This document shows, piece after piece, positions 3,041 through 25,134 of a stretch of DNA of 64,000 bases. Positions within the stretch are counted from its first letter, which is position 1; the number at the start of each line of letters is the position of its first letter. Under the pieces are notes generated by a model, which was not told the DNA's origin, made no database searches, and was given only the letters and a program-made list of their open reading frames with translations. This stretch comes from an uncultured delta proteobacterium. GTDB lineage: Bacteria > Myxococcota_A > Polyangia > Polyangiales > Polyangiaceae. The stretch is from the NCBI GenBank assembly GCA_963731595.1, contig CAVSWE010000003.1:44948-108947 (forward strand). Reading direction: 5' to 3'. The position numbers and the translations under genes were made by a program.

Positions 3041-3051
3041 GCGCCCTTTCA

Positions 3052-4650
3052 TCAAGTACCCGGAATCTTGAGCGTGCGATCGTCGCGCGAAATTCGAGAC
3101 GGGCGGCCGGCGCGCTTGCGACGGCGGCGTAGCGCCTCTTGCACCTCGGGGCGCTCGAGATCGGCGGCGAGGATCTGCCAGGGAGCATCGAAGACGAACT
3201 GCTTCGCGGGCAAGATCTTGTCACGGATCAACACGCGGATCGCGTGGCAACTCACGCCAGCCTTCTCCGCGGCTTCGACCATGGTCAGGCATCGTCCGTC
3301 CTTGACGGCGGACTCGTAGCCCGGAATCCCTTTGGTGCGACGATAGTCGCCAACGCGCTTCGCGCTCCAGGTGTGCCCGAAGGGCGTTGTCGCGCCCATG
3401 CGATTCAAGCTCGCCGCGATGTGCTCATCGGACCACCGCGCGCCCATCTGGCGAATAACATCGTCGACCTCGACGGCGTTTCGCATCATGTGCTCGCCCG
3501 GTTGCGGCTTGCGGACCCGGAGCTCGGAGTGTTGCCCTCCTCGCCAATGGATCACGAGGATGACCTCGCGCTTGCCGTCGTCGACGTCGACGACGATCTC
3601 CTCAATCAGAGTACGAACGATTCGCTGCTTCGTTCGCATCTCGGTCGAGGACGAATTCCAGACCGCCTTGAGATCACCCGCGAGCGAGAGGAGCGAATCT
3701 CGATCGAGCACGGGCGTCGGCGTCGAGCTCAAGAGAAGGCGAGCGTCGCATTCCTTCAAGCGCGCCATGGCTGCGTTCCAGCGTGCCTCGAGCACGGTGG
3801 CGACGAGTCGATTGTCGGGATCGACTTTCTCGTACCGACGAGCCGCAAGCTTGACATCGTACTCGGCCTGTTCGCGCTCGAGCGCGAGAGCGCGGCGTTG
3901 CTCATCGATCTGCGTGATCGCTTCGCGCTCCGCCATGAGGGCAGCTTCCACGGCGAGCGGCTCAACGACAAGAAGAATCTCGGCACCGATCGCGAGGTCT
4001 GGCCGCGTTGCGCCGAAGCCGATGCAGGGCTCGATGCCGTGCATCTGCCGACCCCTTCGGCACGCGTACCGAGGCTTGTGATAGTGGCCCGTGTACGCGA
4101 CCTGGAGCATCCGCCCGCATCGTCGGCAACGAAGTAGACCAGCCAGCAATCCTCTGCCTCCACGTGCGGACTTCGAACTCCCCGCACGTTGACAGAACGA
4201 GTTGCGAGCGAGACGCGCGCGATTGCGCTCGAACGTTTCCCACGACACGAATGCCTCATGATGGTCGCGCGTGAGCACGGTCCATTTCTCCATGGCCTGC
4301 GCGCGGCCGTAGACCTTTCGCAGCGAGCCGTCGACGAGTTCGGTCTGCACCCGGTGCTTCCCGTACGCGTACGCGCCCGCATAAAACGGGTTCTGGAGAA
4401 CGGAGATCACACTCCGATATGCGGGCGCCCGCCACGCGAGCTGCGCATTGCATCGACCATTGGCCGGTCGCGGAAAGAGCAGGCCTTCGCGGCGCATGTG
4501 CAGAAGGACTTGAGTCGCGCTCCCGAGCCGCTCGAACAACCGGAAGATCGTGCGAATGGCATCTTGGATTCGCCGATCGGGATCCATCATCAGGCCCTCG
4601 TCGCGAGACCAGACGTAGCCGACAGGAACACTGATCCGAAGCTCTTGATC
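3052..4650 (-). pseudogene. Large serine recombinase, 3' fragment; N-terminal resolvase catalytic domain absent
   Basis: The 575-aa ORF begins directly in the recombinase domain ('ISVPVGYVWSRDEGLMMDPDRRIQDAIRTIFRLFERLGS'). It continues through a Zn-ribbon region ('LLRCRRCGRMLQ...YACRRG') and a coiled-coil C-terminal extension. The first about 30 codons of the naive ORF overlap the 3' end of IS3 orfB in another frame. No resolvase-like N-terminal ORF was seen on the far side of the IS3. Confidence 0.7.
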
Positions 4651-4681
4651 TTCCCCCGGCTGGGCGGACAGGTTTCGTAAC

Positions 4682-5554
4682 TCACGCGGCCATCTCCGAG
4701 ACGGACCGCTTCCATTCAAACGTAATCGGCGACTCGTAACCAAGAGAAGAATGCCTTCGTCGCACGTTGTAATAGCCATCGATGTACTCGCCTACGAGGC
4801 GGGTGCCGGCGGCGTGGTCGGCAGGCACGTTGTCGATGGCCTCGGTCTTCAGCGTGCCGTTGAAGCTCTCGGCGACGGCGTTGTCCCAGCAGTCGCCCTT
4901 GCGGCTCATGCTCGCGACGATGCCAGCGTTCGAGAGCGCGGCTCGGTACGCAGCGCTCGCGTAGGGGCTGCCGCGGTCGGAGTGGTGGACGAGCCCCGGT
5001 GGCGGCCGTCGCTGGCGCAGCGCGGCTCTGAGCGCGTCGAGTGCGAGCGCGGTGTCGTTGCTGGCGCTGGTCGCCCAGCCGACGACGCGGCGCGAGTACA
5101 GATTGAGGATGGCTGCAAGATACAGCCATCCGACCATCGTCCAGATCGCCGTCACGTCGGTCACCCACACGCGGTTCGGAGCGTCGGTCGTAAAATTGCG
5201 CGCGAGCAGGTTCGGCGCGATGGGGTCCTGATGCGACGAGTCGGTCGTGGCGACGAAGCGCTTCCTGCGGCGCGCCACGAGGCCGGTTTCCCGCATGATG
5301 CGCGCGACGCGCTTCTCGTTGACGACCTCGCCGTCGGCACGCAGCTCCTCAGCGACGCGAGGGCTCCCATAGCGGCCGCGATGGTCTCCGAAGATTGCGC
5401 GGACCTTGGAGGCGAGCGCGACATCGCGACGCTCACGCTCGGTGACGGGCTCGGCGAGCCAGTCGTAGTAGCCGCTCTTGGAGACGCCGAGCGCCTCGCA
5501 CATGGCCATGACCGGCCAGGCCACCTTCTGCGAATCGATGAACGCGTACTTCAC
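4682..5554 (-). CDS. IS3-family transposase OrfB (DDE integrase core)
   Basis: 'WVTDVTAIWTMVGWLYLAAILNLYSRRVVGW...HHSDRGSPYAS...DNAVAESFNGTLKTE', a classic rve-domain DDE. Confidence 0.85.
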   Translation of the reverse strand: MKYAFIDSQKVAWPVMAMCEALGVSKSGYYDWLAEPVTERERRDVALASKVRAIFGDHRGRYGSPRVAEELRADGEVVNEKRVARIMRETGLVARRRKRFVATTDSSHQDPIAPNLLARNFTTDAPNRVWVTDVTAIWTMVGWLYLAAILNLYSRRVVGWATSASNDTALALDALRAALRQRRPPPGLVHHSDRGSPYASAAYRAALSNAGIVASMSRKGDCWDNAVAESFNGTLKTEAIDNVPADHAAGTRLVGEYIDGYYNVRRRHSSLGYESPITFEWKRSVSEMAA

Positions 5555-5862
5555 GCGCTCTCCTTCGCGAAGAAGGTGGCCGCCGCTTTTAGGATGTCGC
5601 GTTCCCGCTGCAGGTGCTTGACCTCTCGTCGCAGCCGCGACAGCTCCTCGCGCTCCTGCGTCGTCAGCGCATCGCTACGCTCGCCGGCATCCGCCTCCGC
5701 GCGCCGTACCCACGCGTGCAGCGACGTCACCGTCAGATCGAGCTCCCGCGCCACCTGCGCGACTGACTTGCCGCTCTTCACGAGCCGCACCGCGTCGGCC
5801 TTCTGCGCCGCCGTGAACGCCCGCCGAGCGCGCCGTTTCTTGAGTTCCTTTTTTTGTCCCAT
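5551..5862 (-). CDS. IS3-family transposase OrfA (HTH + leucine zipper)
   Basis: 'RRAFTAAQKADAVRLVKSGKSVAQVARELDLTVTSLHAWVRR...ELSRLRREVKHLQRERDILKAAATFFAKE'. Confidence 0.85.
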   Translation of the reverse strand: MGQKKELKKRRARRAFTAAQKADAVRLVKSGKSVAQVARELDLTVTSLHAWVRRAEADAGERSDALTTQEREELSRLRREVKHLQRERDILKAAATFFAKESA

Positions 5863-6469
5863 CGTCGAACACTCCCGCGCAGTATCGCGCTACCCGACGA
5901 CAATTACCCGTGGAGTGAGCGATGAACCCTGGCGACGATCTGCAAGAGTAGTTGTCGTGCTTCTGCAAGAATAGTTGACGTCCATCAAGGGACGATTCCG
6001 CGACGTGCAAGGGTCGGTGCCGATGGCTTCTGCCACTTCGATCCAGCCTTCATCTATCGCTACCGGAAGCCACCTCCCATGTCCGTGAGCCAACTGCTCG
6101 ACGTGGGCGCACGATACGTGAGCGCGGCTCGGAGGTTCGCTGCGGAACGCACTGTGTGACGACCGTGTCCCTACCTTCTTACGAACGGCACGTGCAGCAG
6201 TTCGGCCGCCTTCTTCTGAGTCGCGTCCGGGCGTCTGCCTCACACCACCGTCAGCGTCGACGACGAGCAACGTCCCACCCATGAGGCGATGTTCGCTTCG
6301 GGACGGTCGAAAATCAACGGTCGCTTGCATGTATCCTACATGTTACGGCTGCTTTTTGGTTGGATGACGAGCACTTCTGTTTCTTGGCGGTCAAAGTTTG
6401 ACCGAACGCGCTGATCGCGATGGACCAGCGCGCCGCCGAAGCGATACCCCGGATTGAGGAGAAGGAACC

Positions 6470-8175
6470 ATGAACTTTCGCGTGTTGGCGCTTGCCATCC
6501 TCGTCACGGTCGGCTGCTCGGTCGCCGAGGACACCGGAGCATCGACCGAAGACCTCACGGGCGTCGCCTCCGTTGCGTGGACCAATGCGCCCAGCAAGGG
6601 GTCCACGGGGCCAAGTCACTTCGGAACGAGTTCGACCCTCACGGTTAGCGACAATTCGTGCGGCGGCCTTGGAAATGCATTTCGCACGACGACCGTGTGG
6701 GAGGAGGAGGCCGTCGGCAGCAGCGACTACCCGACGAACCTTTGGCTGGGAAATACCTGCGGATTCAACCCTGTCACGGTGAACTACGGCGGCGCCGCGC
6801 GCCCTCTCGACGCTGCCTTGACCGGGACTCCTACCCAGTGGACGAAGCTCTTCGGAGCACAGCCGATGTACTGGACCAAGGAGCCGACACTCGTGCCTCT
6901 GCTCGATCCGTCCACCTTCACGGCAGCGGGTGCTCCGGTGCCGATTGCACTCATCGGCTTGGTGGGACTATCGCCTACTGGGCCTTCGAACGAGCTCGCG
7001 GTCGCCTTGTCGCTCGACGGAGGGCAGACGTGGAATGATCCGACTGCGCCGCCGCAACTCCTCCTCCAGAGTCCCGACAACAGCGCGACCGGGGTCGACG
7101 ATTGGCCGTGAGCGCAGGGGGCCACCTAGACAACCAATCGGCAGGCTATCACGCGCTCTTTACGTCAAACACGTACGATATCTACATGACTTGGTGGAGC
7201 CTCAACTCGACGGCTCACCGCTGGTTTGATGTTGCGGGCTTTCGACTCAACCAGTGGTCCCATCTGCTCGTGACGCCTCCGGTGGACCTCAACGTTCGGG
7301 CGCCGGCCGTCTTCAACCCAACCGGTCAGCCATCCAACGATATCTTGTACATGAGCGTGGTATCCGCGATCAGCAAAGCTCAGGCGTCGGACCAGCCCAT
7401 GGTGTTGGTTGAGTGGCCCGTCGCGACAGACTTGAATCCGCCGCCGGAATACTTCACTCACTGCCCTGAGCCGACCACCACCATTCTCGGTCCTCCTGGG
7501 ATCGCATGGCATGCGGCGGTCTCCTACAACTACGGCAAGACGTGGAGCGCGCTTCGGGATTCGCACCCAAACGCGCAGGTACCGTTGTGCGTCGGTGCCA
7601 ACTCCTTGGTGGTACCGGGCTACGCCACCTACCGGAACTCGTTCCGTTCGTCGTTGGCCTTCGACCCGAATTCGAATACTATCATCGACGCGATTGCAAT
7701 GTGGGACACTTTCGACAACGTGCCAGGAACGTACATCGAGGCCAATGGGTTTTCGACTTACGCGACCACCCCTAGCCCCCTCCCGATCTTCCACACTACC
7801 CACGTAGATACCCAGGCGCGACAGGACCAGTTCCTGCCGGTCGTGTCGTCGGCGCTCGGAACCGGTGGGCCGCAAGGCTACGTGACGATCGCATGGCTCG
7901 ACTCCGTCGAGGACACTACAGGCTCGAATGTACCGACTGGCGTCTACGGTGTCACTAGCCAGGGCTTCACCATCAACACGCCAGGCTGGTCAACCACAAT
8001 GCGCGCATGGCCTGTTCCCCCGGCCGCACACGCCTACATGTTCAACGGTTTCCCCGACACGCTCGGCCGACACAATTCGATGAGTGTGCAGGGGTGGTCG
8101 TGGGTGACCTTCGCCGGTGACTATGCATCGCTTGGCCATGAGACCATGGACATGACAACCATCTCGCCGCTCTGA
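6470..8175 (+). CDS. Secreted BNR/Asp-box repeat lipoprotein (sialidase-like beta-propeller), interrupted by a frameshift near 7100
   Basis: Good RBS ('GGATTGAGGAGAAGGAACCATG'). Lipoprotein signal 'LAILVTVGCSV'. Asp-box motifs 'SLDGGQTW' and 'SYNYGKTW'. The reading frame stops at 7108 ('DDWP*') and continues from a TTG at 7102 in another frame ('AVSAGGHLDNQ...'). Confidence 0.55.
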
Positions 8176-8573
8176 TGCGCTTCGCACTACTCGCTGCAGT
8201 TGTCTCGACCGCACCGGTGTTCGCCGCCTGCGGCGGGCGGCTGCTCGAGGAGAGCGACGCGGACAAGCTCGACGGCGCCAGCGATGCCGTCGTCGACGGC
8301 CCCTATACGGGGGAGTGGTGCGATCCGGAGACGGGGAGCACGAGCGGCCCTGGCGGCGACGCGATCTATTGCACGAGCAACCCTTACACCGATGCGCCCG
8401 AGCATTGCCATCGCGCTTATTCGGCGACAGTGCAATGGAACTGCTGCACGCTCGACGATCCGCTCTGCTGTCCCTTGGCGTCGCACATGGAGGACCATGG
8501 CTACATCGCGACGTGCTGCGCGAGCGACACCGACTGCACCACCTGTTGCGACGGAATTGATCCGAAGCCCTGA
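8175..8573 (+). CDS. Small secreted cysteine-rich lipoprotein (16 Cys, CC doublets)
   Basis: Start overlaps the upstream stop (TGATG). Lipobox 'PVFAACGG'. C-terminal half 'WNCCTLDDPLCCPLASHMEDHGYIATCCASDTDCTTCCDGIDPKP' has four CC doublets. No recognised domain. Confidence 0.55.
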   Translation: MRFALLAAVVSTAPVFAACGGRLLEESDADKLDGASDAVVDGPYTGEWCDPETGSTSGPGGDAIYCTSNPYTDAPEHCHRAYSATVQWNCCTLDDPLCCPLASHMEDHGYIATCCASDTDCTTCCDGIDPKP

Positions 8574-8786
8574 CTGAGGCGCGGCAGAGTTTCGCGCCGC
8601 TGGAAGCTCGGGCTAGAGGGGCGACCTCGACGGCGTATGATCCGGGGCGACGGTTGGGGACCGCACAAAAACCGCGCTCGAAGAGACAACGCGCCGCACC
8701 AATAACAGTTGAACGTGGGTCGAAGCGCGCGTACGGTTGAGTCGACTGAGGGGGTCACGTTCGCGAACATACGAAAGGGGCTCGTG

Positions 8787-10574
8787 ATGTCTCGTCTCGC
8801 TTCTCAGAGGCGCCGCCGATTGGCGCGCCTCGCCGGGGCTGGTCTCGTGTTGGGTACCGTGGTCGTAGGCGCATGCACGCCGCCGCCAACGGGGACGCTG
8901 GAGATTCGATCGAATAACATCGTCGCGTTCTCGAGCGCGACGGGGTTCGCCCAATCCTGGTTCGGATCATCCCTGGGAACAGCGGACTTGATCTCGTTCG
9001 CAAACGCTTTGTCCGTGCATTACACGGATAATTTCTCGACTGTCGCCTCGCAAGAAGAGGTCCTCGTGATGGCTCGCGACCCGCTCGAATATCGAGCGAC
9101 GCTTGAGTCGATTGCGGGTCCGTCGAACAACGCCGTGGATCCCGGCCGATTTCTCGAGTTCACCGCACAAACGTGGGCGTGCGGTGACTCGTGGCCGATC
9201 GTTCCAGTGTTGTCGGACCCAGTGACGATCCCCCCGAACGGCTCCACACTTCCGTCCGCGGTCGGCATTCCGTTTCCAGACCAACAGCAATCACCTCAAA
9301 TCGACTGGGCCCTTTCCAAGCTCATGTTCGTGGGCAATGGGCCGAAACCCTGCGGGAGCTTCTCGGGCGCAGCTGCTGCCTTCGAAGGCACCATCAAGGG
9401 CCTGAGCGTCATGCGTCACGGGGTGTGCTCGATGGAGCAGAGCCTCGACGGCCTCTCCGGCCTGAAAATGGTCCCACCGAACCTCATGGCCTTGGGGTTG
9501 GGTATCGATGTAGCGGACTTCGGATTGAGCTCTTTCGTGACCTATGCGCCGAATGGCGGTTTCATTGTAACCGGGCACGTCGATACTTCCGAGTTGCTCC
9601 TACCGCCCGCTCCGCCCATTCCGGTCGCCGCGAGCATCGACCGAAACTACACTTACCGGTTTTCGCTCGACGACGGGATCATGTCGATCGACGCGCCTAC
9701 GGCGAACATCTCCAACGATAGCGGCGTCGATCCTCTGTCCGTCGGTTCGCTGGTCAACGGGCTTCTCTCGAACGTGGTGCCCAATGCGGCCAAGCTTGCC
9801 GTTCTCGACGGTCCCCCGGGGACGTTCATCGGAGGTCTGGCGCAACCAATGCCCGCTCCGCCACCGATCGGCGGGATCCCGCCGGCCTGTACAATAACGA
9901 CGGGGCAACGACCCTCGACCTGCTTCATTCCGTGCCGCAACTCCGACAACGTCGACATGGCCGATCCGAGCACATGGCCATCGCCCGAAGACGCCAACGA
10001 TCCCAACCACATCGATCCCCCGAGTTGGCACGACTCGAAGTTCTGCGGCTTGCCCGCAGCGCTCCTCGGCGGACTCGCTGGTGGCGCCACCTCACCGCTG
10101 GGCGCGACGATCACCGAGCCACTACCAGTTGCGACGGGCGGCGTCGACACAACCAAGTTCCACAACTGGCGCTGCAACTTCCACCCACGTTACGAATCGC
10201 CGACATCGAGCATTGCAGTGAAGAGCCTTGATCCGGTGACGAATGCAGCTCCGTTCGGGCTTGGTGGGACGACCATCGTCACCGGTCCACCCGTGTGCGA
10301 GTTGATCGTGCGGGTGAAGAGGCTGAACGTATTCCCCGACTCCGTGGAAGCCGTTTTCTTCGACGGTACGAGCACGACCGCACCCGATTTGAGTGACGCG
10401 GCTGGCAACGAGGCGCTCGCAGTCTTCACGGGCCTGAGCGCGCTCGTGGGCCCGGGTGCTGCGAGCAGCGCAATGTGTGGGCGACAACCCGAAACGCCAG
10501 GTGCTCAGTTACTTTGCAATGCGGGCGCGTGCACTCCGCGACAGCGAAGCTTCGCCCATTTCATGCTGCACTGA
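8787..10574 (+). CDS. Large secreted lipoprotein (~595 aa), unknown function
   Basis: RBS 'AAAGGGG' 8 nt upstream of the ATG. Signal 'MSRLASQRRRRLARLAGAGLVLGTVVVGACT' (RR motif plus lipobox). Gly/Pro/Thr-rich, no motif recognised. Confidence 0.55.
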   Translation: MSRLASQRRRRLARLAGAGLVLGTVVVGACTPPPTGTLEIRSNNIVAFSSATGFAQSWFGSSLGTADLISFANALSVHYTDNFSTVASQEEVLVMARDPLEYRATLESIAGPSNNAVDPGRFLEFTAQTWACGDSWPIVPVLSDPVTIPPNGSTLPSAVGIPFPDQQQSPQIDWALSKLMFVGNGPKPCGSFSGAAAAFEGTIKGLSVMRHGVCSMEQSLDGLSGLKMVPPNLMALGLGIDVADFGLSSFVTYAPNGGFIVTGHVDTSELLLPPAPPIPVAASIDRNYTYRFSLDDGIMSIDAPTANISNDSGVDPLSVGSLVNGLLSNVVPNAAKLAVLDGPPGTFIGGLAQPMPAPPPIGGIPPACTITTGQRPSTCFIPCRNSDNVDMADPSTWPSPEDANDPNHIDPPSWHDSKFCGLPAALLGGLAGGATSPLGATITEPLPVATGGVDTTKFHNWRCNFHPRYESPTSSIAVKSLDPVTNAAPFGLGGTTIVTGPPVCELIVRVKRLNVFPDSVEAVFFDGTSTTAPDLSDAAGNEALAVFTGLSALVGPGAASSAMCGRQPETPGAQLLCNAGACTPRQRSFAHFMLH

Positions 10575-11146
10575 TGATGAGCGTACGGCACGGCGTCAGG
10601 CACATCCCCCTTGCGGCGCCAGCATACTTCCTGTGCGTCACGGTTGGATGCGCAACGATCACGCGCGAATCGACGGTGACAGCCATCGAGGCCACGACAA
10701 AGCCGCGTAGCCAGGTCGTCAGCGTCAATGGCGTGCCGGTCTTCGACGCGCCTCCGATATCCCAGGGCGACTCGGTCACGTTGGTCACGACGAAGGGTCG
10801 GGTCGCGCTTCGACCTTCGGACAAGGTCACAATCCGGACAACGTATTGCGACGGCGACACGATTCCCAATGAAGGTGTTGTCCGAGCGCGCCCTTCGAGC
10901 GGACTCATCGTCGCAGGCGTCTCGATGTTCGCTGGCGGTCTTGCGGGGATGGGGATCACCGCTTGGGAGGCAAACATCTTCACGCATGACCTTTCGACCC
11001 TGCCAGGCGCCGTCGCGTTTCTCGCCGTCAACGGCACCATCGCGGCGGCGGGGCTAGCGTTGCTGATCGTCGGTGTCTTTCCGCGCGCGCGCGTTGTGAC
11101 CACGATGTATGGATCGTCTAGCACCGGTTGGGGTATCTCCTTCTAA
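10574..11146 (+). CDS. Lipoprotein with C-terminal transmembrane segments, unknown function
   Basis: ATG overlaps the previous stop (TGATG). 'YFLCVTVGCATI' lipobox. Hydrophobic C-terminus 'GVSMFAGGLAGMGITAW...AFLAVNGTIAAAGLALLIVGVF'. Confidence 0.5.
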   Translation: MMSVRHGVRHIPLAAPAYFLCVTVGCATITRESTVTAIEATTKPRSQVVSVNGVPVFDAPPISQGDSVTLVTTKGRVALRPSDKVTIRTTYCDGDTIPNEGVVRARPSSGLIVAGVSMFAGGLAGMGITAWEANIFTHDLSTLPGAVAFLAVNGTIAAAGLALLIVGVFPRARVVTTMYGSSSTGWGISF

Positions 11147-11158
11147 GGAATTGTCGCC

Positions 11159-11713
11159 ATGCAGATCCATCGCTTGATTTGTTTCACGCTTGCCAGCGCA
11201 TGCGGCGGCACCGTCACCGGAAACGACGCCGAAGCGCCGGACGCCGTAGCGGACGTCGTCACTGAATCCGCAATGGATGCTGCGTTCGACGCGCCACCAG
11301 ATTCACAAACGGACGGGGGCGCGTGTAACACGCTCATCAATGGTGCGACGCCCCTGTACGCCATGCAAAAGTCGAGCAGCGCACCGAGCCCGCTCGGTGG
11401 AACGGTGGTGCCCGGCCTCTACTATCTCACGGCAATAAACCAATACGATGGCAAAGCCGGGCAGACGGGGCCGCTCACTCAGAGCACCATTCAAATCACC
11501 GGGACGAATGCCGAATTCGCGGAGCAGGTTGGTACCGCGTTGTCGCGTGGCTCAGTCATGTTCAGTACGAGCGGCACCACTTTCACATTCAACATGACAT
11601 GCCCACAGATTACATCTTATGCGACGGAATATACAGCTACTGCAACCGCGCTCATCTATTATTCCGACCTCGGTCAAGGCAACGTGGCCGAGCAAATATT
11701 CACGCGGCAGTGA
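11159..11713 (+). CDS. Lipoprotein, unknown function (Thr/Ser-rich)
   Basis: Signal plus lipobox 'LICFTLASACGG'. No known motif. Confidence 0.5.
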   Translation: MQIHRLICFTLASACGGTVTGNDAEAPDAVADVVTESAMDAAFDAPPDSQTDGGACNTLINGATPLYAMQKSSSAPSPLGGTVVPGLYYLTAINQYDGKAGQTGPLTQSTIQITGTNAEFAEQVGTALSRGSVMFSTSGTTFTFNMTCPQITSYATEYTATATALIYYSDLGQGNVAEQIFTRQ

Positions 11714-11805
11714 CTCTGGAAACAATTTTCGTCAGACGTGTGATTGATGTTGGAGTTTTCTCTCGAGCCCCCGAGCGGCGCAAGGGTGCGCCGCGCGCTC
11801 GGGTG

Positions 11806-11841
11806 CCGAGGTCGGCGAGAGAAAGTCCTCGCCGACCTCGG
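11806..11841. terminator. Perfect 14-bp GC-rich inverted repeat (hairpin) between the convergent lipoprotein operon and IS630
   Basis: 'CCGAGGTCGGCGAG-agaaagtc-CTCGCCGACCTCGG'. No downstream T-tract, so it could equally be an IS630 terminal structure. Confidence 0.35.
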
Positions 11842-11861
11842 CACGATGTGCATCGGCCACC

Positions 11862-12965
11862 CTAGTGCACCGCCGTCGAGATGCGATCAAGCATCCGGCG
11901 GTGTGAGCGGATGATTGCGGCTGCGGGTTTGGTCCACTCGAAGGGCGTTGGGTTTGAGTTCCACGACCGCATGAACGCGTGCAAGTGATCCCGCAAGGCG
12001 CTCTTGGAATCGAAGCTTGTGACTCCGAGAGACTGCTTGCCGAGAATCCCGAAGAAGCCCTCGACCTGATTGAGCCAAGAGGCGCTGGTCGGCGTGTAGT
12101 GGAAGTGCACCTCGGGATGCTCGGTGAGCCACGCCTCGATGGCGGGCGTGCTGTGCGTGGACGAGTTGTCGAGAATCACGTGCAGCTCCTGCTTCGGATA
12201 GACGCCGACGACCTTCTTCATGAAGCCCAGGAAGTCACTCGCGGTGTGCGCGTCGGTCAGCTTGTGCGTCACCTTGCCCGTTGCCACTTCGAGCGCTGCA
12301 TAGAGATCGATGACGCCGTGTCGCTTGTAGTCGTGCGTATGTCGAACGGCGCGTCCCGTGCGTAAGGGAAGCGGCATCTGCGTGCGCTGCAGGGCTTGAA
12401 TGGAGGTCTTTTCGTCGACGCTCAGACACGACGGCATTGTCGGGCGGGTTCAAGTACAGGCCCACTACGTCCTTCACTTTTGCGGTGAATTCCGGATCTC
12501 GGCTGACTTTGTACGTTCGCACCAGATGTGGCTTGAGCCCGTTCTCTCGAAGCAGATCGGAGATGCACCCGCTGGTGAGACCGACCTTCTTGCCGAGCAG
12601 CCTGGTGGTCCAGCGGCTTCGGCCAGCAGGCGGAGGCGACATCGCAAGTTGGACGACTCGCTCGACCGTCTCGCGCGGCACCGCGTGGTCCTGACGCCCT
12701 GACTTCGGGCGAGCGGTGAGACCCGGTACGCCCTCGTCGTAGAAGCGTCGCGAAGCTTCGACACGTGTTCTGGCGACAGATCCAACCGGACGGCGATCTC
12801 GGCTCCCGACACGCCGGCGTCGGTCAACAGAATCACGCGAGCCCGCCGGACGAGCCCCGCTCTTTCGGACGAGCGAGCGACGATCGCCTCCAGTTCTTCA
12901 CGCTGCTTGCCGGTGAGCTTGATCTCGATGACTTCTGCCATGCCGCAGCGAACGCGCGGCGGCAA
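11862..12965 (-). pseudogene. IS630-family (Tc1/mariner-like) transposase split over three frames
   Basis: N-terminal HTH ORF 12474..12965. Middle ORF 12235..12681 ('RWTTRLLGKKVGLTSGCISDLLRENGLKPH'). DDE C-terminus ORF 11862..12437 ('VILDNSSTHSTPAIEAWL...HFHYTPTSASWLNQVEGFF'). Two frame changes. Confidence 0.7.
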
Positions 12966-13907: not shown

Positions 13908-15323
13908 TCAGCTCGATGAGGACGCCAGCTCGCGCAGGCGTCGAAGCAAGAGGACGAGCCCGAAGGTGTCGCGCTCGCAGTACGCGAGCAACGCGTCGCG
14001 CTCGGTTTCCGTCGCGGCGCCCGAGAGCACGCGCTCGAGCGTGACGGTGGCCGCGAAGCCGTCGGCGATGGCGAGGTTGTCGTAGTTTGCAGTCGTGAGC
14101 GCCGGAAGCATACGCTTCAGACCGAACGAGCCGCCGAACGCAGGGTCGTAGACGTGATTGCGAACGACCGGCAGGAGATCGACGACGCGATCGCGCACAG
14201 AGAGGAGGTCGGTCGCGAGATCCGGAAGCGCGGCTGCAAGGTCCGCGAGCACGCGCCGCTCGAAGCCCGCGTTGTAGACCGCGATCGACTGCGCGCCCGC
14301 GCATGCCGCGATGACGGCGTTCGCGACTCCGCGTCGCGGGTCGCTCGAGTCGCTCGCGATCCACGCGTGATGCGCGCCGCCGTCGCGGTGCACGCTCACC
14401 TGCACCGGAACCGCCTGATACGGCGAGCACCCGTCCCACGTCGGGACGGGAAGGCTCACCGTCTCGAAGTCGAGGAACGCGACGGGCGGCGTGAACGCCG
14501 CGAGCGCGCCCGCGAGATCGCCCTCCACGACGAGCGCGCCGCTCTGCACCGCGCGGCGCTGACGCTCCGCGATCCCCTCGAGCGGCTCGTCGATGTCGCC
14601 GATGACCTTGATGCCTTCCTCGAGCAGCCGCGCCGCGAGCTCGCGCCCGCGGTAGAGCGTCGTCACGTGGTCGGCGGACACGGGCCCGAAGCACCGCTCC
14701 TGAAACGGACACGGATACGGCGACTCGCAGTGCCGCCCGCGCACCGCGTCGGGCATCAGGTCGCGCTCGAGCACGCGGAGCTGCTTCCGGATCGCGCGCG
14801 AGAGCTTGGGCGCGAGCGTCGCGACGTCGGCCGTCACGTCCTTGCGCACGAACAGATCGCGCAGGTTCGGATAGGTGCAAGAGGAGTTGAGGTGCATGAT
14901 CTCGACCCTCCGCACGAGCAGCCCCGAGTGTGCGATCACGTGCGCTTGCACGGCCGCGTCGGTCAGGTGCTGCTCTTTCACGCTCGTCGTGGACTTCACC
15001 TCGATGATTCGCCATCCGCCGCGCTCGCGCACGAGCACGTCGGCCGCAACGAACACGTCGTCCGCGACGAAGGAGGCTTCGTAGATGACGGACGCACCGG
15101 CAGCGAGGGCCTGACGCGTCGCCTCGACGCGGTGCTCGTCGTTCGCGATCAGAACGCCGCCCGGAAACTCCTCACGCGCTCGCTCGCCGATGCGGTGTCC
15201 TTGATCGAAGACGGCCTGAAGGCTCGCATCCACGACGAGCTCCGGGGCGTCCGGCTCGTGAACGCGAAGCCAGAGCGCGCGATGGCACTGGAGGCCCACT
15301 TGGAAGCGCGACTTGGAGAGCAT
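13908..15323 (-). CDS. DUF2779-domain protein (predicted nuclease-like)
   Basis: N-terminus 'MLSKSRFQVGLQCHRALWL' is the typical DUF2779 start. 471 aa in one frame. Confidence 0.65.
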   Translation of the reverse strand: MLSKSRFQVGLQCHRALWLRVHEPDAPELVVDASLQAVFDQGHRIGERAREEFPGGVLIANDEHRVEATRQALAAGASVIYEASFVADDVFVAADVLVRERGGWRIIEVKSTTSVKEQHLTDAAVQAHVIAHSGLLVRRVEIMHLNSSCTYPNLRDLFVRKDVTADVATLAPKLSRAIRKQLRVLERDLMPDAVRGRHCESPYPCPFQERCFGPVSADHVTTLYRGRELAARLLEEGIKVIGDIDEPLEGIAERQRRAVQSGALVVEGDLAGALAAFTPPVAFLDFETVSLPVPTWDGCSPYQAVPVQVSVHRDGGAHHAWIASDSSDPRRGVANAVIAACAGAQSIAVYNAGFERRVLADLAAALPDLATDLLSVRDRVVDLLPVVRNHVYDPAFGGSFGLKRMLPALTTANYDNLAIADGFAATVTLERVLSGAATETERDALLAYCERDTFGLVLLLRRLRELASSSS

Positions 15324-15408
15324 CGAGCTTCAACATACGGCCGGGGTGCGAAGAAACGGTTCGCACCTGTTGCCAAGAGGGAATGCCTCGCGTGCGCCGC
15401 GAGGTAAC

Positions 15409-16176
15409 ATGTGCAGCTCAATGCAACTCCCTCTGAAACCTTTCCATGTCGGGGAAGCGCTCGTCGCGAAGCTGATGAAGCGGATCGGACCTGGCGCGCT
15501 GGCGGGAATCACAACCGGAACAAGCTTGCCGCCGACCGGCGATTTTGATGTTCGCGATGATGTGGCGCTCTGCGAGATCACTGCTATTGATGCCCTTTTT
15601 CCGCATATCGCGACCTGCTACAGCAGCGCCCCAGGCCATACGGGAACGCCAGGTTCGTACAAATTCGATGCTCAGAGTCGCATCGATGTGATCACCAAGC
15701 ATGACGCCGCCGTCGGCCGCGTTGCCCTTGCTTGGGAGGTCAAGCTCGGAGACACATGCAAAACGTGGTCATCGTTCAAGAACGCGTTTCTCAACGCGGG
15801 CACGGACTTCAACAAGAAGTCTCAACCAGCTGGTAAACCTCGGCAGATCCTTCCAATCATTTCGGGCAGCATGCCGATCATTCTGCGAGACTACGTTCAG
15901 AGCATCGGAGTCTTCAGCGGCGCCAAACCGAGTGATGAGCTTCGCTGCACGTGGAACAGCACCAGTGTGCCGTTGATTCGTGGCTGGGGCCTGGTGGCCC
16001 GGCAAGCGCTGGTGGACGACCTCCTCAAAAAGAAAACGCCTCGAACCCAAGGCCTGCATTACATGATCTCGTTCAAGAAACTCGCGGAAGAAGCGGGCCG
16101 AAACGGTTTCGACGACACAGTATGGGATCTTCTTGGGCTGAGCCGAATCAGCTTCTACGATCAATGGATCAAGTGA
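15409..16176 (+). CDS. Hypothetical protein in the low-GC island; possible PD-(D/E)xK nuclease-like core
   Basis: RBS 'GAGGT' 5 nt before the ATG. GC about 55 percent. 'IDVITKHDAAVGRVALAWEVKLGD' gives a D...ExK arrangement. No confident family assignment. Confidence 0.4.
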   Translation: MCSSMQLPLKPFHVGEALVAKLMKRIGPGALAGITTGTSLPPTGDFDVRDDVALCEITAIDALFPHIATCYSSAPGHTGTPGSYKFDAQSRIDVITKHDAAVGRVALAWEVKLGDTCKTWSSFKNAFLNAGTDFNKKSQPAGKPRQILPIISGSMPIILRDYVQSIGVFSGAKPSDELRCTWNSTSVPLIRGWGLVARQALVDDLLKKKTPRTQGLHYMISFKKLAEEAGRNGFDDTVWDLLGLSRISFYDQWIK

Positions 16177-17099
16177 GTCGGGCAACGCAGCGACTGCTTG
16201 CAAGATACGTCCTACAGCGCGTCGAGGCCCGTCTTCGTTCGAAGACGAACGACGTCAGCGTTATCGGCCTTGGCGCAGCCTTCGAGGCATGGCTCGCATT
16301 CGAGGCTCGGTTGGCGCTTGAGGGCGACCATCGAGGTCTGCGACGCGCCGCCGGCGTTCAAGGGGGCGCCCCCATCTCGACGATCAACGAATGGAAGAAG
16401 GTGGACCTCAGCGTGTGGTCCGCCGTCGAGCCTATCGCCTGGCGCTCGAATCCAAACTCGTTCACAACAACAAGAACTGGCGTACGAAGTGCGACGACAT
16501 CTGTAACGATCTCTACCCGAAAGGGCCAAAGCAGCGCTTGGCTTGGAGGCTCGGTCGCCGGTGATTGTTGGCCTAGTGTGGAAGCGTTTCACCATGAGAG
16601 ACAACGCAACATATCCCGGCGAAGTGATGCTTCCTTTTATGAGTGGCACCGTCAGGTGTTTGAACACCTCAACGAATCATCGCGTTGTTCGAGTCGCGCA
16701 GTCGGCTCGCCTAACGTTTGCAGCGCTGCCCCGATGGTTCGATCAAAAGGCTCCGCATGGCATGACGCTCGTTGCGACCATGCCCACCAGAGGTGCGTTG
16801 CGAAACATCTTCCCGTAAGCATCGATCGCTCGCCACGGCTAGCGACCGGCCTGAAGTTACAAGGCATCCCGGCTGGTAGTCGGCACACGCGATGCGACGG
16901 TATCCGGGCGTGCCACACTTCACATGCTGCGGGATCCACCAAATCTTGCGACACATTCCAAGAGCTAGTTAGGTTAACGTTATAACCGCGTACTCTGTCG
17001 AGGATGAATAATGCCTAATATTCCGTGGTTGACCGAGGAACAGCGTGCGAGCGTGGATGCTCGGATCCAAGTAATCGAACGAGAATTGCCTAAGCGCCA

Positions 17100-17420
17100 T
17101 TGGGCAGAGTTAACGAGCGTTCTGACCTTGCACATGGGCAGACCGCAGTAATATATATATTGGATTATCGCGGATTGACGTTGCGCGGCGCGATCCGATA
17201 CGCTCTTAGGGACGCTAGCACGAGGCTTCTCTACCGAGGGCAAACACGCCGATACAAAACCGGGTTCGTTCCTGGCCTTTTTCGAGAAGCCAATGATCGC
17301 GCGGAAAAAGAGCGCCGTCTTAGCACTCTTCGCAAGGCGATTGATTGCATCAGGAACACCTGGGATCGCAGGGCGCTTCCGACGATGAGCGCGTTGCGCT
17401 TGCGCAACATTATGGCTTGA
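17100..17420 (+). pseudogene. FRG-domain-like remnant (abortive-infection-type), frames broken
   Basis: 'LLYRGQTRRYKTGFVPGLFR' resembles the FRG motif. A QHYGL-like continuation ('HYGLKTP') appears only in a different frame after the stop. About 53 percent GC. Confidence 0.3.
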
Positions 17421-18089
17421 AAACGCCGTCACCCATTATGTTCAAACCGCTGCTTGGTTTCGTACAACGATCTCGCTGGACCACCTCGTTTCACTACTGA
17501 CACGACAAGCAAGGTGCCGACGCCAAACGGATTAATGACGATCTTGTGGACGTATTTCCCTAATGGCGGCGCCGACCAGCACCAATGACGACTGCAAGTG
17601 CGTGGACCTACGATTAAGGGATTGAACTGGCTACGCTCCGGATGTCCAGCAAGGCTTCGCGATCCTGCTGGCAGATCCACTTCGTTCTGGTGGAAGACTC
17701 GATGAACTACTCGTTGCAACGTTTGTTTTTGCGACCTCTCCTGAGGGGGTGGTTTTCCCATGACGATCTTGGGCCAGAGATCTTCTACTCGAACCTGCTG
17801 GAAGACGAGGGATCTGTATTGGGATCTTGCGACGACGAAACTGAAAAATGAGTTGGTACAATCGGAATATCAACAGGTCGTATGGTGTGCTGCGAAAAGT
17901 GAGTAAGCCGTATACACACGAAAAGGCGGCGCCGCTCATGGCCGTGCTGAGTTTTCACAGAAACGCGCTCGGATCGCCGGTGGCGATTCTGACTCGCACA
18001 GCATTCTGCAACGGCTTCGACTTGCATTCGAAAGGCCGAACTGTCGAAAACACACGCGCACCACTCACGGATCTTCGCAAGCGCACGAG

Positions 18090-19043
18090 ATGACGTGTAC
18101 CGTCAGCGCGAGCAGATTCACACCTCGTTGTTCTGACGTCAGAGCCTGGCGGCTGCTCCACGTGATGGTCTTGAGCGAGGCCCTTCCACTGGCGGAACGC
18201 GCTCATCCGCCTTCGCTCTCGACGGACACGGGTCGCACCTCATGGGATCCTCAGAGCGACCTGTGGCGAAGAAGCGAAGAGGACGACCGCCTTCTTGTTA
18301 CGAGTGAGTCGGTCAAGCACCGGCGAAGCCTCGCGAACGACGCGCTCCGCCAGCTCCTTCGCGACGAGGAAGTCGACCCGGACGCGCCCGCGCGCCGCAA
18401 CGCGCGCGAGGAAGAGGCGCTCGAGCGTCCGATGCGACTCGACGAGCAGCGCATCGGCGCCGTCGTCGCCGCGCTGAAGGCGTGCGGCGCGAAGTCGGTC
18501 GTCGACCTCGGCTGCGGAGAGGGCAAGCTCGTTCGTGCGCTCGTGAAGGAAGCGTCGTTCGAGCGCATCGTCGGTGTCGACGTCGCGCACCGCGCGCTCG
18601 AGCGCGCCGCCGAGCGCCTTCACATGGACTCGATGCCGGAGCGCCAGCGCTCGCGCGTCGCGCTTCTTCACGGCAGCATTCTCTATCGCGACCAGCGCAT
18701 CGCCGGCTTCGACGCCGCCGCGCTGGTCGAGGTCATCGAGCATCTCGACCCGCCTCGGCTTCACGCGTTCGAGCGCGTCGTGTTCGAGTTCGCGCGCCCT
18801 CGGACGGTCGTGCTGACGACGCCGAACGCCGAGTACAACGTGCACTTCGCCGGGCTCGAAGCGGGGAAGCTCCGTCACAAGGACCACCGCTTCGAGTGGA
18901 CGCGCGCCGAGCTCGAGGCGTGGGCGCGCACCGTCGCCGAGCGTCACCGGTACGCCGTGCGTTTCCTCGGCGTCGGCAGCGACGACCCCGTGACGGGTCC
19001 GCCGACGCAGATGGCGATCTTCGATCGAGTGGAGGCGATGTGA
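18090..19043 (+). CDS. hen1: Hen1 RNA 3'-terminal 2'-O-methyltransferase, methyltransferase domain only (N-terminal Pnkp-interacting domain apparently absent)
   Basis: SAM motif I 'VVDLGCGEGKL'. 'VGVDVAHRALERA...LLHGSILYRD...ALVEVIEHLDPPRL...FEWTRAELEAWA' matches bacterial Hen1 C-terminal MTase. Only about 135 aa precede motif I, and the first about 70 codons lie in lower-GC sequence that looks non-coding. Stop overlaps the pnkp GTG start (ATGTGA). Confidence 0.75.
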   Translation: MTCTVSASRFTPRCSDVRAWRLLHVMVLSEALPLAERAHPPSLSTDTGRTSWDPQSDLWRRSEEDDRLLVTSESVKHRRSLANDALRQLLRDEEVDPDAPARRNAREEEALERPMRLDEQRIGAVVAALKACGAKSVVDLGCGEGKLVRALVKEASFERIVGVDVAHRALERAAERLHMDSMPERQRSRVALLHGSILYRDQRIAGFDAAALVEVIEHLDPPRLHAFERVVFEFARPRTVVLTTPNAEYNVHFAGLEAGKLRHKDHRFEWTRAELEAWARTVAERHRYAVRFLGVGSDDPVTGPPTQMAIFDRVEAM

Positions 19044-21613
19044 CCGAGCCTCTCAAGATTCCCGAGCTCGCGCTCGTCGTGCTCGTCGGAGCGTCCGGCT
19101 CGGGCAAGTCGACGTTCGCGCGCAAGCACTTCAAGGCGACCGAGATCCTCTCGTCCGACGCGTGCCGTGGTCTCGTGTCCGACGACGAGAACAACCAGGC
19201 GGCCACCGAATCGGCGTTCGAGGTGCTCCACTTCATCGCGAAGAAGCGCCTCGCGCGCGGTCTTCTCACGGTGGTCGACGCGACCAACGTCCAGGCCGAG
19301 GCGCGCAAGCCCCTCGTCGCGCTCGCGCGCGAGTTTCATGCGCTGCCCGTCGCGATCGTGCTCGATGTTCCGGAGAACGTGTGCCGCGAGCGCAACAAGG
19401 CGCGCGCCGACCGCGCCTTCGGTCCGCACGTGATCCGGCAGCACATGCAGCAACTCCGCGCGTCGCTGCGCAAGCTCGAGCGCGAAGGCTTTCGACACGT
19501 CCACGTGCTCGATTCGCTCGAAGCGATCGAGGCAGCGACCATCGTGCGTCAGCCGCTTTGGAACAACAGGAAGCACGAGCGCGGCCCGTTCGACGTCATC
19601 GGCGACGTGCACGGCTGCTTCGACGAGCTCGAGGCGCTGCTCGGCGAGCTCGGCTACGTCGTTCGGCGTACCGACGGCGCCGAGCACGCGTTCGACGTGT
19701 CGCACCCGGAGGGTCGCAAGGCCATCTTCGTCGGCGATCTCGTCGACCGTGGCCCCAAGGTGCCCGACGTGCTCCGCCTCGTCATGGCGATGACCGCCCA
19801 GAACGTCGCGCTCTCCGTGCCCGGCAACCACGACATCAAGCTGATGCGGAAGCTCCGCGGCAAGGACGTTCGCATCACGCACGGTCTCGCCGAGTCGCTC
19901 GCGCAGCTCGAACAGGAGCCGCCGGAGCTCTCCGCGCGCGTCGCCGACTTCGTCGACTCGCTCGTCAGCCACTACGTCTTCGACGACGGCAAGCTCGTTG
20001 TCGCGCACGCGGGTCTGAAGGAGTCGATGCAGGGTCGCGGCTCGGGCGCCGTGCGCGAGTTTGCGCTCTTCGGCGAGACGACGGGCGAGACCGACGAGTA
20101 TGGACTGCCGGTGCGGTATCCGTGGGCGCAGGACTATCGCGGCAGCGCCGCCGTCGTGTACGGACACACGCCCGTCCCGGAAGCCGAGTGGCTGAACAAC
20201 ACGATTTGCATCGACACGGGCTGCGTCTTCGGCGGCAAGCTCACGGCGCTCCGCTGGCCGGAGCGGAAGCTCGTGAGCGTTCACGCCGCGTACACCTATT
20301 ACGAGCCCGCGAAGCCCTTTTTGCCGAAGGACGCCGCGGCGCCCGCGCTCACCGATCAACAGCTCCACGACGACGTGCTCGATCTCAACGACGTCCTCGG
20401 CAAACGCATCGTTCAAACGTCGCTCCACCACGCGGTCACGATTCGCGAAGAGAACGCCAACGCGGCGCTGGAGGTGATGAGCCGCTTTGCGGTGCAGCCG
20501 AAGTGGCTCGTCTACCTTCCGCCGACGATGTCGCCGTGCGAGACGACGGCGCGTCCCGGCATGCTCGAGCATCCGGCGGAGGCCTTCGCGTACTTCCGAA
20601 ACCACGGCGTGCCGGCGGTCGTGTGCGAGGAGAAGCACATGGGCTCGCGCGCGGTCATCCTCGTGTGCCGTGACGAGGAGGCGGCGCGGAAGCGCTTTGG
20701 CGTGGTTGGCGAAGGCATCGGCGTCGTCGTGACGCGCACCGGGCGGCCGTTCTTCGGCGACGCCGAGCTTCAGGCTGCGCTTCTTCAGCGTCTCCATTCG
20801 GCCATCGGCAAGGCGGACCTCTGGTCGAAGCTCGATACGAGCTGGCTGTGCCTCGACGCCGAGCTCATGCCGTGGTCGCTCAAGGCGCAGGAGCTCCTTC
20901 GCGCGCAATACGCGGCCGTCGGCGCCGCCGCCGAGATGATGCTCGCCGATGCGCGGACCGCGCTCGCGCAGGCCCTGTCGTGCGGCCTCGACGTGAGCGC
21001 GCTCGCCGAGCGCACGGCGGCGCGCGATGCGATGACCGCGAAGTACCGCGACGCGTATCGTCACTACTGCTGGTCGGTCGCCTCCATCGACGACGTGAAG
21101 CTCGCCCCGTTCCACGTGATGGCGAGCGAAGGCCGCGTCCACGTGGGCGAGGATCACCTCTGGCACATGGCGACGCTCGCGTCGCTCTGCGCTGAGGACG
21201 AAGGCCTGCTCGTCGCGACGCCGCACCGGCGCGTCGAGCTAACCGACGCAGAGAGCGAAGCGGCCGCGGTCGCGTGGTGGGAAAAGGTCACCGCGCGCGG
21301 CGGCGAAGGCATGGTCGTCAAGCCGCTCGACTTCGTCGCTCGCGGTAGCCGCGGTCTGCTCCAGCCCGCCGTGAAGTGTCGAGGGCGCGAGTACCTGCGC
21401 ATCATCTACGGCCCCGAATACGACGCCCCCGAGAACCTCGAGCGCCTGCGGTCGCGCGGGCTCGCGGCGAAGCGCTCGCTCGCCTTGCGCGAGTTCGCGC
21501 TCGGCGTCGAGGGCCTCGAGCGCTTCGTGCGCGGCGAGCCGCTCCGGCGGGTGCACGAGTGCGTCTTCGGCGTCCTCGCGCTCGAGAGTGAGCCAGTCGA
21601 CCCGCGGCTATGA
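19040..21613 (+). CDS. pnkp: Polynucleotide kinase-phosphatase/ligase Pnkp (P-loop kinase, metallophosphatase, adenylyltransferase/ligase)
   Basis: 'LVVLVGASGSGKSTFA' (kinase P-loop). 'DVIGDVHGCFDELEALL...GDLVDRGP...GNHD' (calcineurin-like phosphatase). C-terminal ligase domain with 'EEKHMGSRAV' (KxxG nucleotidyl motif). 857 aa, apparently full length. Confidence 0.85.
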   Translation: MTEPLKIPELALVVLVGASGSGKSTFARKHFKATEILSSDACRGLVSDDENNQAATESAFEVLHFIAKKRLARGLLTVVDATNVQAEARKPLVALAREFHALPVAIVLDVPENVCRERNKARADRAFGPHVIRQHMQQLRASLRKLEREGFRHVHVLDSLEAIEAATIVRQPLWNNRKHERGPFDVIGDVHGCFDELEALLGELGYVVRRTDGAEHAFDVSHPEGRKAIFVGDLVDRGPKVPDVLRLVMAMTAQNVALSVPGNHDIKLMRKLRGKDVRITHGLAESLAQLEQEPPELSARVADFVDSLVSHYVFDDGKLVVAHAGLKESMQGRGSGAVREFALFGETTGETDEYGLPVRYPWAQDYRGSAAVVYGHTPVPEAEWLNNTICIDTGCVFGGKLTALRWPERKLVSVHAAYTYYEPAKPFLPKDAAAPALTDQQLHDDVLDLNDVLGKRIVQTSLHHAVTIREENANAALEVMSRFAVQPKWLVYLPPTMSPCETTARPGMLEHPAEAFAYFRNHGVPAVVCEEKHMGSRAVILVCRDEEAARKRFGVVGEGIGVVVTRTGRPFFGDAELQAALLQRLHSAIGKADLWSKLDTSWLCLDAELMPWSLKAQELLRAQYAAVGAAAEMMLADARTALAQALSCGLDVSALAERTAARDAMTAKYRDAYRHYCWSVASIDDVKLAPFHVMASEGRVHVGEDHLWHMATLASLCAEDEGLLVATPHRRVELTDAESEAAAVAWWEKVTARGGEGMVVKPLDFVARGSRGLLQPAVKCRGREYLRIIYGPEYDAPENLERLRSRGLAAKRSLALREFALGVEGLERFVRGEPLRRVHECVFGVLALESEPVDPRL

Positions 21614-21717: not shown

Positions 21718-22560
21718 ATGGCGAATCCCCTCGAACGCGCGCCGCTGTCGCTGGAAAGCCTCTCCGTCGGAGACGCTTTCGGTGAGCGCTTCTTCGGACC
21801 GCTGCGGAGCCGGGCGGGGTTTGGCGTTGGACCGACGACACTGCGATGGCGGTTTCCATCGTCGACCAGCTCGACGAGACCGGTTCGATCGATCGCGACC
21901 AGCTCGCGGAGCGTTTCGCGGAGCGCTTCGATCCGGCTCGAGGGTACGGCGCGGGCGCGTATCGGATCCTGTCGGCCATCGGGGAAGGTACTCACTGGAG
22001 GCACGCCGCCGGCAGCGCGTTCGGCGGGAGCGGATCGCTCGGCAACGGCGCGGCGATGCGGGTCGCGCCGCTCGGCGCCTTCTTCGCCGACGATCTCGAG
22101 CGCTGCGTCTCGGAAGCGCGCTCGTCCGCCGAGGTTACGCACGCGCACGGCGAGGGAATCGCAGGCGCGATCGCCGTCGCGGTCGCCTCGGCGCTCACGT
22201 GGCCGCGTCGCGGCGCTCCCGAACGGGCGTGACTGGCTGGCGCGGATCCTGGAGCACGTGCCCGCTGGACGTGTGCGAGATGGAATCGAGGTGGCGCTCG
22301 CGCTCCCCGCTTCCGCGACGGCCGAGCACGCCGCGAACCTGCTCGGAAACGGCGGCCGACACCGTCCCGTTCGGCCTGTGGATGGCCGCCTGGCGCTCTC
22401 ACGACTACGGCGAGGCACTTTGGTAAACCGTGTCGGCGCTCGGCGATCGAGACACGACTTGCGCGATCGTTGGCGTCATCGTCGCACTGCACGTGGGATA
22501 CGCCGGCATCCCGGCCGATTCGCGCCGGGCCCGCGAGCGCTTGCCACCGCGCATCGAGTG
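21718..22560 (+). pseudogene. ADP-ribosylglycohydrolase (ARH/DraG family) with multiple frameshifts and an in-frame stop
   Basis: N-terminus 'LSVGDAFGE'. Core 'GSLGNGAAMRVAPLGAFFADD' in a second frame. 'ETAADTVPFGLWMAAW' in a third frame, followed by TAA. C-terminal 'GDRDTTCAIVGVIVALHVGYAGIP' after the stop. Confidence 0.5.
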
Positions 22561-22588
22561 ACCGTCGCAAGGCGTCGGCGCCCGACGT

Positions 22589-24255: not shown

Positions 24256-24259
24256 GTTT

Positions 24260-25132: not shown

Positions 25133-25134
25133 CC

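Follow-up and report, generated by a model that had tools for sequence, protein, structure and literature searches.

Does a bacterial Hen1 that consists of a methyltransferase domain only, and that is encoded beside a complete Pnkp, represent a reduced form of the RNA repair system or a damaged copy of it? The question was raised by a gene pair at 18090-21613 of a 64,000-nucleotide stretch (hereafter the window) of contig CAVSWE010000003.1, from an uncultured delta proteobacterium of the Polyangiaceae. In the Pnkp-Hen1 cassette known from Clostridium thermocellum and Anabaena variabilis, the two proteins form a (Pnkp)2(Hen1)2 tetramer. Pnkp alone is active as a kinase and phosphatase and forms ligase-adenosine monophosphate (ligase-AMP) without RNA sealing, sealing is switched on by the N-terminal half of Hen1, which fixes the insertion module of the ligase, and the C-terminal half works on its own as a Mn-dependent methyltransferase (PMC3675462; PMC4411300). 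Our analysis indicated that the window probably holds a canonical hen1-pnkp cassette disabled by a rearrangement that removed the 5' part of hen1, N-terminal domain included. The features that carry this reading were as follows, with the basis of each call in parentheses.

15330..18300, no strand: low-GC segment replacing the 5' half of hen1 and the sequence upstream (guanine-plus-cytosine (GC) content 0.45-0.63 against 0.67-0.75 around it)
18090-19043, + strand: hen1-like open reading frame (ORF) of 317 amino acids (aa) (ORF list)
18090..18315, + strand: non-homologous 5' extension of the hen1 ORF, from the low-GC segment (no Hen1 similarity; GC content at third codon positions, GC3)
18316..19043, + strand: Hen1-homologous part of hen1, about codons 229-475 of full-length relatives (tblastn, blastn, DNA alignment, TIGR04074)
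19031..19043, + strand: coupling region, with GGAGG at 19031-19035 and then the GTGA stop/start overlap at 19040-19043 (sequence reading)
19040..21613, + strand: pnkp, 857 aa, three domains (kinase, phosphatase and ligase), GTG start (TIGR04075, Pfam and PDB matches)

The first-pass annotation had described a Hen1-Pnkp pair with a 317-aa methyltransferase ORF that lacked the N-terminal domain and carried motif I about 135 aa from its first Met, and all of this was borne out. The ORF has a class I methyltransferase fold with the S-adenosylmethionine (AdoMet) motif DLGCGEG at residues 139-145, followed by full-length Pnkp ending at 21613. The motifs EVIEHLD and HKDHRFEW were also present and residues 106-312 matched the solved methyltransferase domains 3JWG, 3JWH, 3JWI and 3JWJ, so that the C-terminal domain of Hen1, the predicted 3'-terminal ribose 2'-O-methyltransferase, is present. 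The match to TIGR04074 (bacterial Hen1) covered profile positions 216-461 of 462 only, on ORF residues 66-312, and scored 340.5 bits against a cut-off of 340, without the full-length coverage of the bacter_Hen1 equivalog. PF12623 (Hen1_L) was not detected in the 317-aa ORF by Pfam search, and the N-terminal domain of about 230 aa by which Hen1 binds and activates the ligase in the Pnkp-Hen1 cassette was therefore missing from it. Judged by these matches, the ORF descends from a true Hen1, of which it retains a fragment. The Pnkp protein matched TIGR04075 with 1449 bits (cut-off 750) over positions 3-851 of 851, and contained the Pfam domains AAA_33 (kinase), Metallophos and PNKP_ligase (612 bits), with PDB matches to 4GP6 (kinase), 4J6O (phosphatase) and 4DRF and 3TY8 (ligase).

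As in the cassette, hen1 directly precedes pnkp, shares its strand and is closely coupled to it. The start codon of pnkp is the GTG at 19040, four bases past GGAGG, and gives a 4-nt overlap with the hen1 stop that was also found in relatives L001-L004. The coupling had been read earlier as ATGTGA; this sequence is present at 19038-19043, but its ATG is the last sense codon of hen1 and the real overlap is GTGA. For the hen1 ORF itself the start candidates are the ATG codons at 18090 and 18165, the latter being taken in the public annotation P0001 (292 aa), which spans 92% of the 317-aa ORF.

The position of the truncation was determined by comparison with full-length relatives. With 10 full-length Hen1 proteins as tblastn queries, similarity began at 18273-18297, corresponding to residue 215-223 of the relatives; blastn against the hen1 genes of relatives found homology from 18315, which is hen1 nt 685; and in a multiple DNA alignment the homology was clear from about 18316 and ambiguous back to about 18291. 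The junction of Hen1 homology thus falls between 18291 and 18315, at about codon 229 of full-length relatives, and the homologous part downstream comprises a linker of about 30 aa and the complete 2'-O-methyltransferase domain. GC content per 100 nt rose from 0.61 at 18201-18300 to 0.72 at 18301-18400, GC3 was 0.69 in 18090-18290 compared to 0.89 in 18315-19040, and the codon-phase map gave no host-like periodicity at 15330-18240. No similarity of ORF residues 1-65 to any Hen1 was detected by tblastn, alignment or a hidden Markov model (HMM) of the N-domain. Because the onset of homology and the step in composition coincide, these residues are explained as unrelated sequence that stays in frame. 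The earlier placement of the hen1 5' end in a lower-GC insertion ending near 18.1 kb was right about the low-GC tract upstream, and its boundary had to be moved to near 18.3 kb. In the closest full-length relative (P0002), residues 1-228 match the 230-aa Hen1-N chain known from crystals, both by itself and together with the Pnkp ligase domain (4DQZ, 4DRF, 4E6N), so that essentially the whole ligase-activating domain is gone from the hen1 of the window.

The first-pass annotation had named two findings that would speak against its reading: a separate N-domain gene nearby or fused to Pnkp, and a diverged N-domain within 17.4 to 18.5 kb. Neither was found. In the whole 64-kb window, the best tblastn match of Hen1 residues 1-215 had E>=0.87, and an HMM built from 131 N-domains and run with all filters off (--max) against the six-frame segments of 15 aa or longer (1,100 in all) gave nothing better than E=6.2 and 2 bits. 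When the N-domain of P0002 was used as query in a protein search, no match came from the called genes of the source contig. Fusion was excluded by the normal length of Pnkp (857 aa, against 856-857 aa in relatives).

Gene order was judged from our own survey of 166 loci fetched from genomes and metagenomes, which included a Hen1-anchored genome scan with one genome per species (80 loci, many phyla) and a Pnkp-anchored metagenome scan that was unbiased as to Hen1 (80 loci). Pnkp was encoded downstream of hen1 on the same strand in 74/80 of the Hen1-anchored loci; in four of the exceptions (L024, L034, L037, L079) the sequence breaks off no more than about 1.4 kb past hen1, and two had a full-length hen1 without Pnkp within 10 kb (L035, L082). 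Among the Pnkp-anchored loci, a complete upstream hen1 was present in 58/80, hen1 was cut by or near the contig end in 15/80, upstream sequence was lacking in 4/80, and three (L091, L133, L153) had more than 3 kb upstream yet no hen1 anywhere in the locus. The loci with Pnkp and no hen1, together with those with hen1 and no pnkp, show that the pairing is not absolute. The order pnkp before hen1 was found in none of the 80 genome and 80 metagenome loci, and every locus with both genes had hen1 upstream on the same strand. The first-pass annotation, which took pnkp followed by hen1 as the established order, had called the arrangement in the window inverted; hen1 followed by pnkp in every informative locus surveyed overturns this claim.

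The survey also bears on the N-domain. It was contiguous with the methyltransferase domain in 80/80 genome loci and in the 58 metagenome loci with whole-gene upstream coverage, and no second methyltransferase-only Hen1 beside Pnkp was found in the other 166 loci with enough upstream sequence. The cassettes closest to that of the window (L001, L003, L087; P0002, P0007, P0029; from soil and Polyangiaceae-like metagenomes) have 78-82% aa identity in both proteins (for Hen1 over the shared part) and the same overlap; unlike the window, their hen1 genes encode 469-477 aa with PF12623, and they have no flanking gene in common with it. A hen1 of 469-514 aa stood directly upstream of pnkp in five metagenomic close-relative loci, with disturbed gene calls in L005 and L006. 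The earlier alternative of a naturally minimal Hen1 was not sustained by these results; full-length close relatives and the lack of a second case pointed instead to a one-off, lineage-specific loss.

Several short calls were inspected in the survey. P0056 (L167) was rejected as a methyltransferase-only Hen1 since the full gene is fragmented by frameshifts, and short matches such as P0004 were rejected as contig-end fragments. Frameshift fragmentation was seen in two long ENA contigs, affecting pnkp at L004:9814-12396 (at least 7 frame changes) and hen1 at L167:5403-6804 (pieces of 56, 139 and 267 aa); short Hen1 or Pnkp gene calls in such frameshift-ridden assemblies should not be taken as natural variants. 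Calls with the Hen1 N-domain only were observed on long contigs, namely P0194 (235 aa, 19 members, 349-kb contig), P0130 (349 aa, 3.2-Mb contig) and P0124 (365 aa, 387-kb contig), and may reflect either frameshift artefacts or hen1 genes that are truly split.

Genes of another kind were also seen within the cassettes. RlaP (PF10127) nucleotidyltransferase genes, usually two paralogues, were located between hen1 and pnkp in several phyla (L007:10845-12468; L141:8087-9717; L030:10983-12566; L020:7540-8526; L052:12768-13556). RlaP homologues occurred in 11/167 fetched loci and were absent from the window; in L004 and on the contig of P0115, described below, they precede hen1. An association of RlaP with RNA ligase genes is already on record (preprint PMC12776372). 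At L027:1744-3485, an AAA_15/AAA_21 ATPase gene and a DUF3226 gene lie between hen1 and pnkp and look like a defence-type gene pair inserted in the cassette.

The state of the remaining genes was evaluated next to that of the intact relatives. At otherwise invariant columns no singleton changes were found in the window proteins (143 Pnkp and 148 Hen1 methyltransferase sequences, the window included), and neither pnkp (2.6 kb), the methyltransferase part nor the neighbouring DUF2779 gene contained a frameshift. Tajima relative-rate tests were carried out on proteins with the nearest intact relative L001 and with L003 or L087 as outgroup; they took the place of a ratio of nonsynonymous to synonymous rates (dN/dS) because the relatives are at most 82% identical and synonymous sites would be saturated. 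Neither protein had accelerated: Pnkp had 52 unique changes in the window against 48 in L001 with one outgroup and 41 against 60 with the other, and for the methyltransferase part the counts were 15 against 21 and 16 against 15. The lack of decay or acceleration implies that the truncation is recent relative to a divergence of about 20%, or that the genes, and with them the remaining activities, may still be under selection.

A more degraded cassette was found in the same clade on a JGI contig (3300047160). Like the window, P0115 has a methyltransferase-only Hen1 fragment (81% identical) in a context of mobile elements and RlaP genes; it is further decayed, with 224 aa, one residue deleted in the HKDHRFEW motif and, in the place of pnkp, a 111-aa ORF (protein calls). 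On this contig the cassette stands next to two RlaP genes and an integrase. The decayed remnant shows that Hen1-Pnkp cassettes do decay in the clade.

Based on these results, the following course of events is proposed. A rearrangement would have removed the promoter-proximal 680 nt or so of hen1, that is, the whole domain of about 230 aa that binds and activates the Pnkp ligase, so that about 3 kb of foreign low-GC DNA now abuts hen1 codon 229 or thereabouts. The rearrangement was probably linked to a mobile element, either as insertion combined with deletion or as outright replacement, and a mobile-element-linked deletion or replacement is the most economical cause. The 317-aa ORF would be a by-product, the hen1 frame happening to stay open for about 75 codons into foreign DNA; the methyltransferase domain and Pnkp would both have been left intact. 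If the pair is expressed, Pnkp could still add phosphate to 5'-OH ends and take off 2',3'-cyclic phosphates, and methylation of 3'-terminal riboses by the now untethered methyltransferase may continue. Sealing of RNA by Pnkp would fail, since its ligase has lost the activator and nothing now joins Pnkp to the methyltransferase. Loss of sealing in the window system is hence the most likely outcome, and the phenotype predicted from published biochemistry is end healing, possibly with 2'-O-methylation, and no sealing. In this way the first-pass suggestion that the N-domain was deleted with the low-GC insertion, leaving the ligase inactive, agrees with the homology and composition evidence, while its part on the ligase stands as a prediction from that biochemistry.

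Compared with known systems, the window resembles the C. thermocellum and A. variabilis cassette in gene order, in the 4-nt coupling and in its full-length three-domain Pnkp, and its methyltransferase domain matched the solved domains of the two species with about 250-260 bits. It differs from that cassette in the absence from Hen1 of the N-terminal domain of about 230 aa, which binds the ligase insertion module and is needed for sealing. The Pnkp1-Rnl-Hen1 complex of Capnocytophaga gingivalis (PDB 4XRP), where healing, methylation and sealing are coupled, has a related Hen1 methyltransferase (40 bits). Sealing there is the task of a separate ligase protein, no ligase domain is present in Pnkp1 and the operon is far from hen1 (PMC4411300), whereas the Pnkp of the window has its own PNKP_ligase domain and hen1 is adjacent, so the pair does not belong to the Pnkp1-Rnl-Hen1 type.

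The low-GC segment and the DNA to its left contained the following further features.

13908..15323, - strand: DUF2779/RecB-like nuclease gene, divergent, left boundary of the low-GC segment (PF11074 1.5e-30; TIGR03491)
15409..16176, + strand: 255-aa ORF in the low-GC segment (no detectable relatives)
17220..17500, + strand: FRG-domain coding remnant with a frameshift near 17385 (PF08867 on a conceptual join)
1639..12965, no strand: mobile-element-rich context region (GC 0.60-0.66; Pfam matches)
1639-3132, + strand: IS66 transposase (Pfam)
3052-4779, - strand: large serine recombinase without a detectable resolvase N-domain (Pfam)
4682-5554, - strand: IS3-type integrase (Pfam)
11862-12965, - strand: IS630-type DDE_3 transposase with a helix-turn-helix (Pfam)

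The DUF2779/RecB-like gene at the left boundary has a GC3 of 0.88. Within the segment, the 255-aa ORF had itself (P0121) as the sole match in a search of 5.8 billion proteins, and no Pfam, NCBIfam or PHROGs match; the FRG remnant gave PF08867 with E=1.5e-6 and 29.4 bits (cut-off 25) when its two frames were conceptually joined. The segment as a whole had no blastn match in the plasmid or phage collections and no PHROGs match. A plausible 46-aa ORF (MPNIPWLTEEQRASVDARIQ...) was observed at 17008-17148 (+), just upstream of the FRG remnant. The transposase and recombinase genes to the left place the cassette at the edge of a variable, mobile-element-rich region, and the close-relative cassettes likewise occupy variable neighbourhoods with integrase, AbiE, reverse transcriptase or RlaP genes. 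Synteny was lacking: none of the 166 fetched loci has the DUF2779 gene or the 255-aa ORF, and the neighbourhoods of the close relatives all differ. The mobile-element genes at 1639-5889 and 11862-12965 were seen to cluster in a tract of lowered GC at 3-18 kb (0.53-0.66 vs 0.70-0.75).

Several points weigh against a disabling rearrangement. The insertion sequence (IS)-like terminal repeats or target duplications looked for around the low-GC segment were not found, only short repeats at chance level, and the segment, with neither transposon ends nor a target-site duplication, thus bears no signature of a particular rearrangement mechanism. For the truncated hen1 ORF, neither of the two ATG codons (18090, 18165) is preceded by a clear Shine-Dalgarno sequence on reading, and a sigma-70-like promoter was looked for and not found. 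No independent assembly of the junction was found by exact look-ups of P0001 and Pnkp, and the frameshifts in several neighbouring genes mean that the assembly may carry errors. The searches for the N-domain covered the window and the called genes of the source contig, and a Hen1 N-domain may be encoded elsewhere in the genome. Finally, an undecayed pnkp, its ligase domain included, would equally fit continued selection for a function.

This last point leads to the alternative that survives best, though it is unlikely, namely a functional reduced variant in which a free methyltransferase-only Hen1 and Pnkp are selected for healing and end-marking without sealing, or in which sealing is supplied in trans. 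Its case is that pnkp and the methyltransferase part show neither decay nor rate acceleration, that the stop/start overlap and the GGAGG before pnkp are kept, that Pnkp can persist without Hen1, as in the 3/80 Pnkp-anchored loci without adjacent hen1 (L091, L133, L153), and that Hen1 has a C-terminal half able to act as an enzyme on its own (PMC3675462). A recent event, however, equally predicts the absence of decay; the arrangement is unique against the 166 loci from elsewhere, the 5' extension is unrelated sequence of low GC3 without a clear ribosome-binding site, and neither the window nor the called genes of the source contig yielded an N-domain. It is improbable that the truncated cassette is both selected and working, with a coupled Hen1 methyltransferase and Pnkp that would heal and 2'-O-methylate RNA ends and leave them unsealed, or have them sealed through an unlinked activator or ligase; if true, it would be a natural separation-of-function form of the RNA repair system.

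An assembly artefact, in which a mis-join or a collapsed region of a metagenome-assembled contig set foreign DNA against the middle of hen1, was given a small chance. It gains from the exact-match gene index, where look-ups of P0001 and Pnkp gave no record of the source contig, and from nearby genes with multiple frame changes and an in-frame stop, by which sequence quality may be uneven. However, two mis-joins would be needed, because host-like high-GC genes flank the 3-kb segment on both sides, and indel errors cannot erase 680 nt of homology in all frames. The frameshift-free state of pnkp, the methyltransferase part and the DUF2779 gene also speaks against it, as does the related contig with a more decayed cassette (P0115), which indicates that real cassette decay occurs in the clade. 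A naturally minimal Hen1 lineage with inverted gene order, for which ORF length and the absence of PF12623 might be cited, is scarcely credible and was refuted by full-length relatives with PF12623 (469-477 aa at 78-82% identity), by the universal hen1-to-pnkp order of the survey and by a stretch of 65 first ORF residues that is conserved in nothing.

The window pair is thus a known system in its normal order, with a real lineage-specific 5' truncation of hen1 that most likely disables sealing, an ordinary event of gene decay or rearrangement. The case matters chiefly as a correction: the order of the genes proves normal, and the supposed "minimal Hen1" comes from a gene that has lost its 5' part. 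The automated annotation as a methyltransferase hides a probably disabled repair system. As a natural deletion of the Hen1 N-domain beside an intact Pnkp the locus has modest value, and given access to the strain or its DNA, the usefulness of end healing and end methylation in the absence of sealing could be examined in vivo. The survey provides a baseline, with Hen1 before Pnkp and the N-domain present in essentially all sampled loci across many phyla.

Downstream of the cassette, two further observations were made. The ADP-ribosylglycohydrolase gene after pnkp (21718-22570, +) has at least 3 frame changes and an in-frame stop, and is either a pseudogene or locally poor sequence. Beyond it, an operon-like run at 23190-27806 (-) holds genes that, judged by eye from the translations, resemble those for an alcohol dehydrogenase, two ATPases of BcrAD/BadFG type and a subunit similar to HgdB; the reading frame switches inside some of them, as near 24,870 and 27,000, which would be indel errors or pseudogenes.

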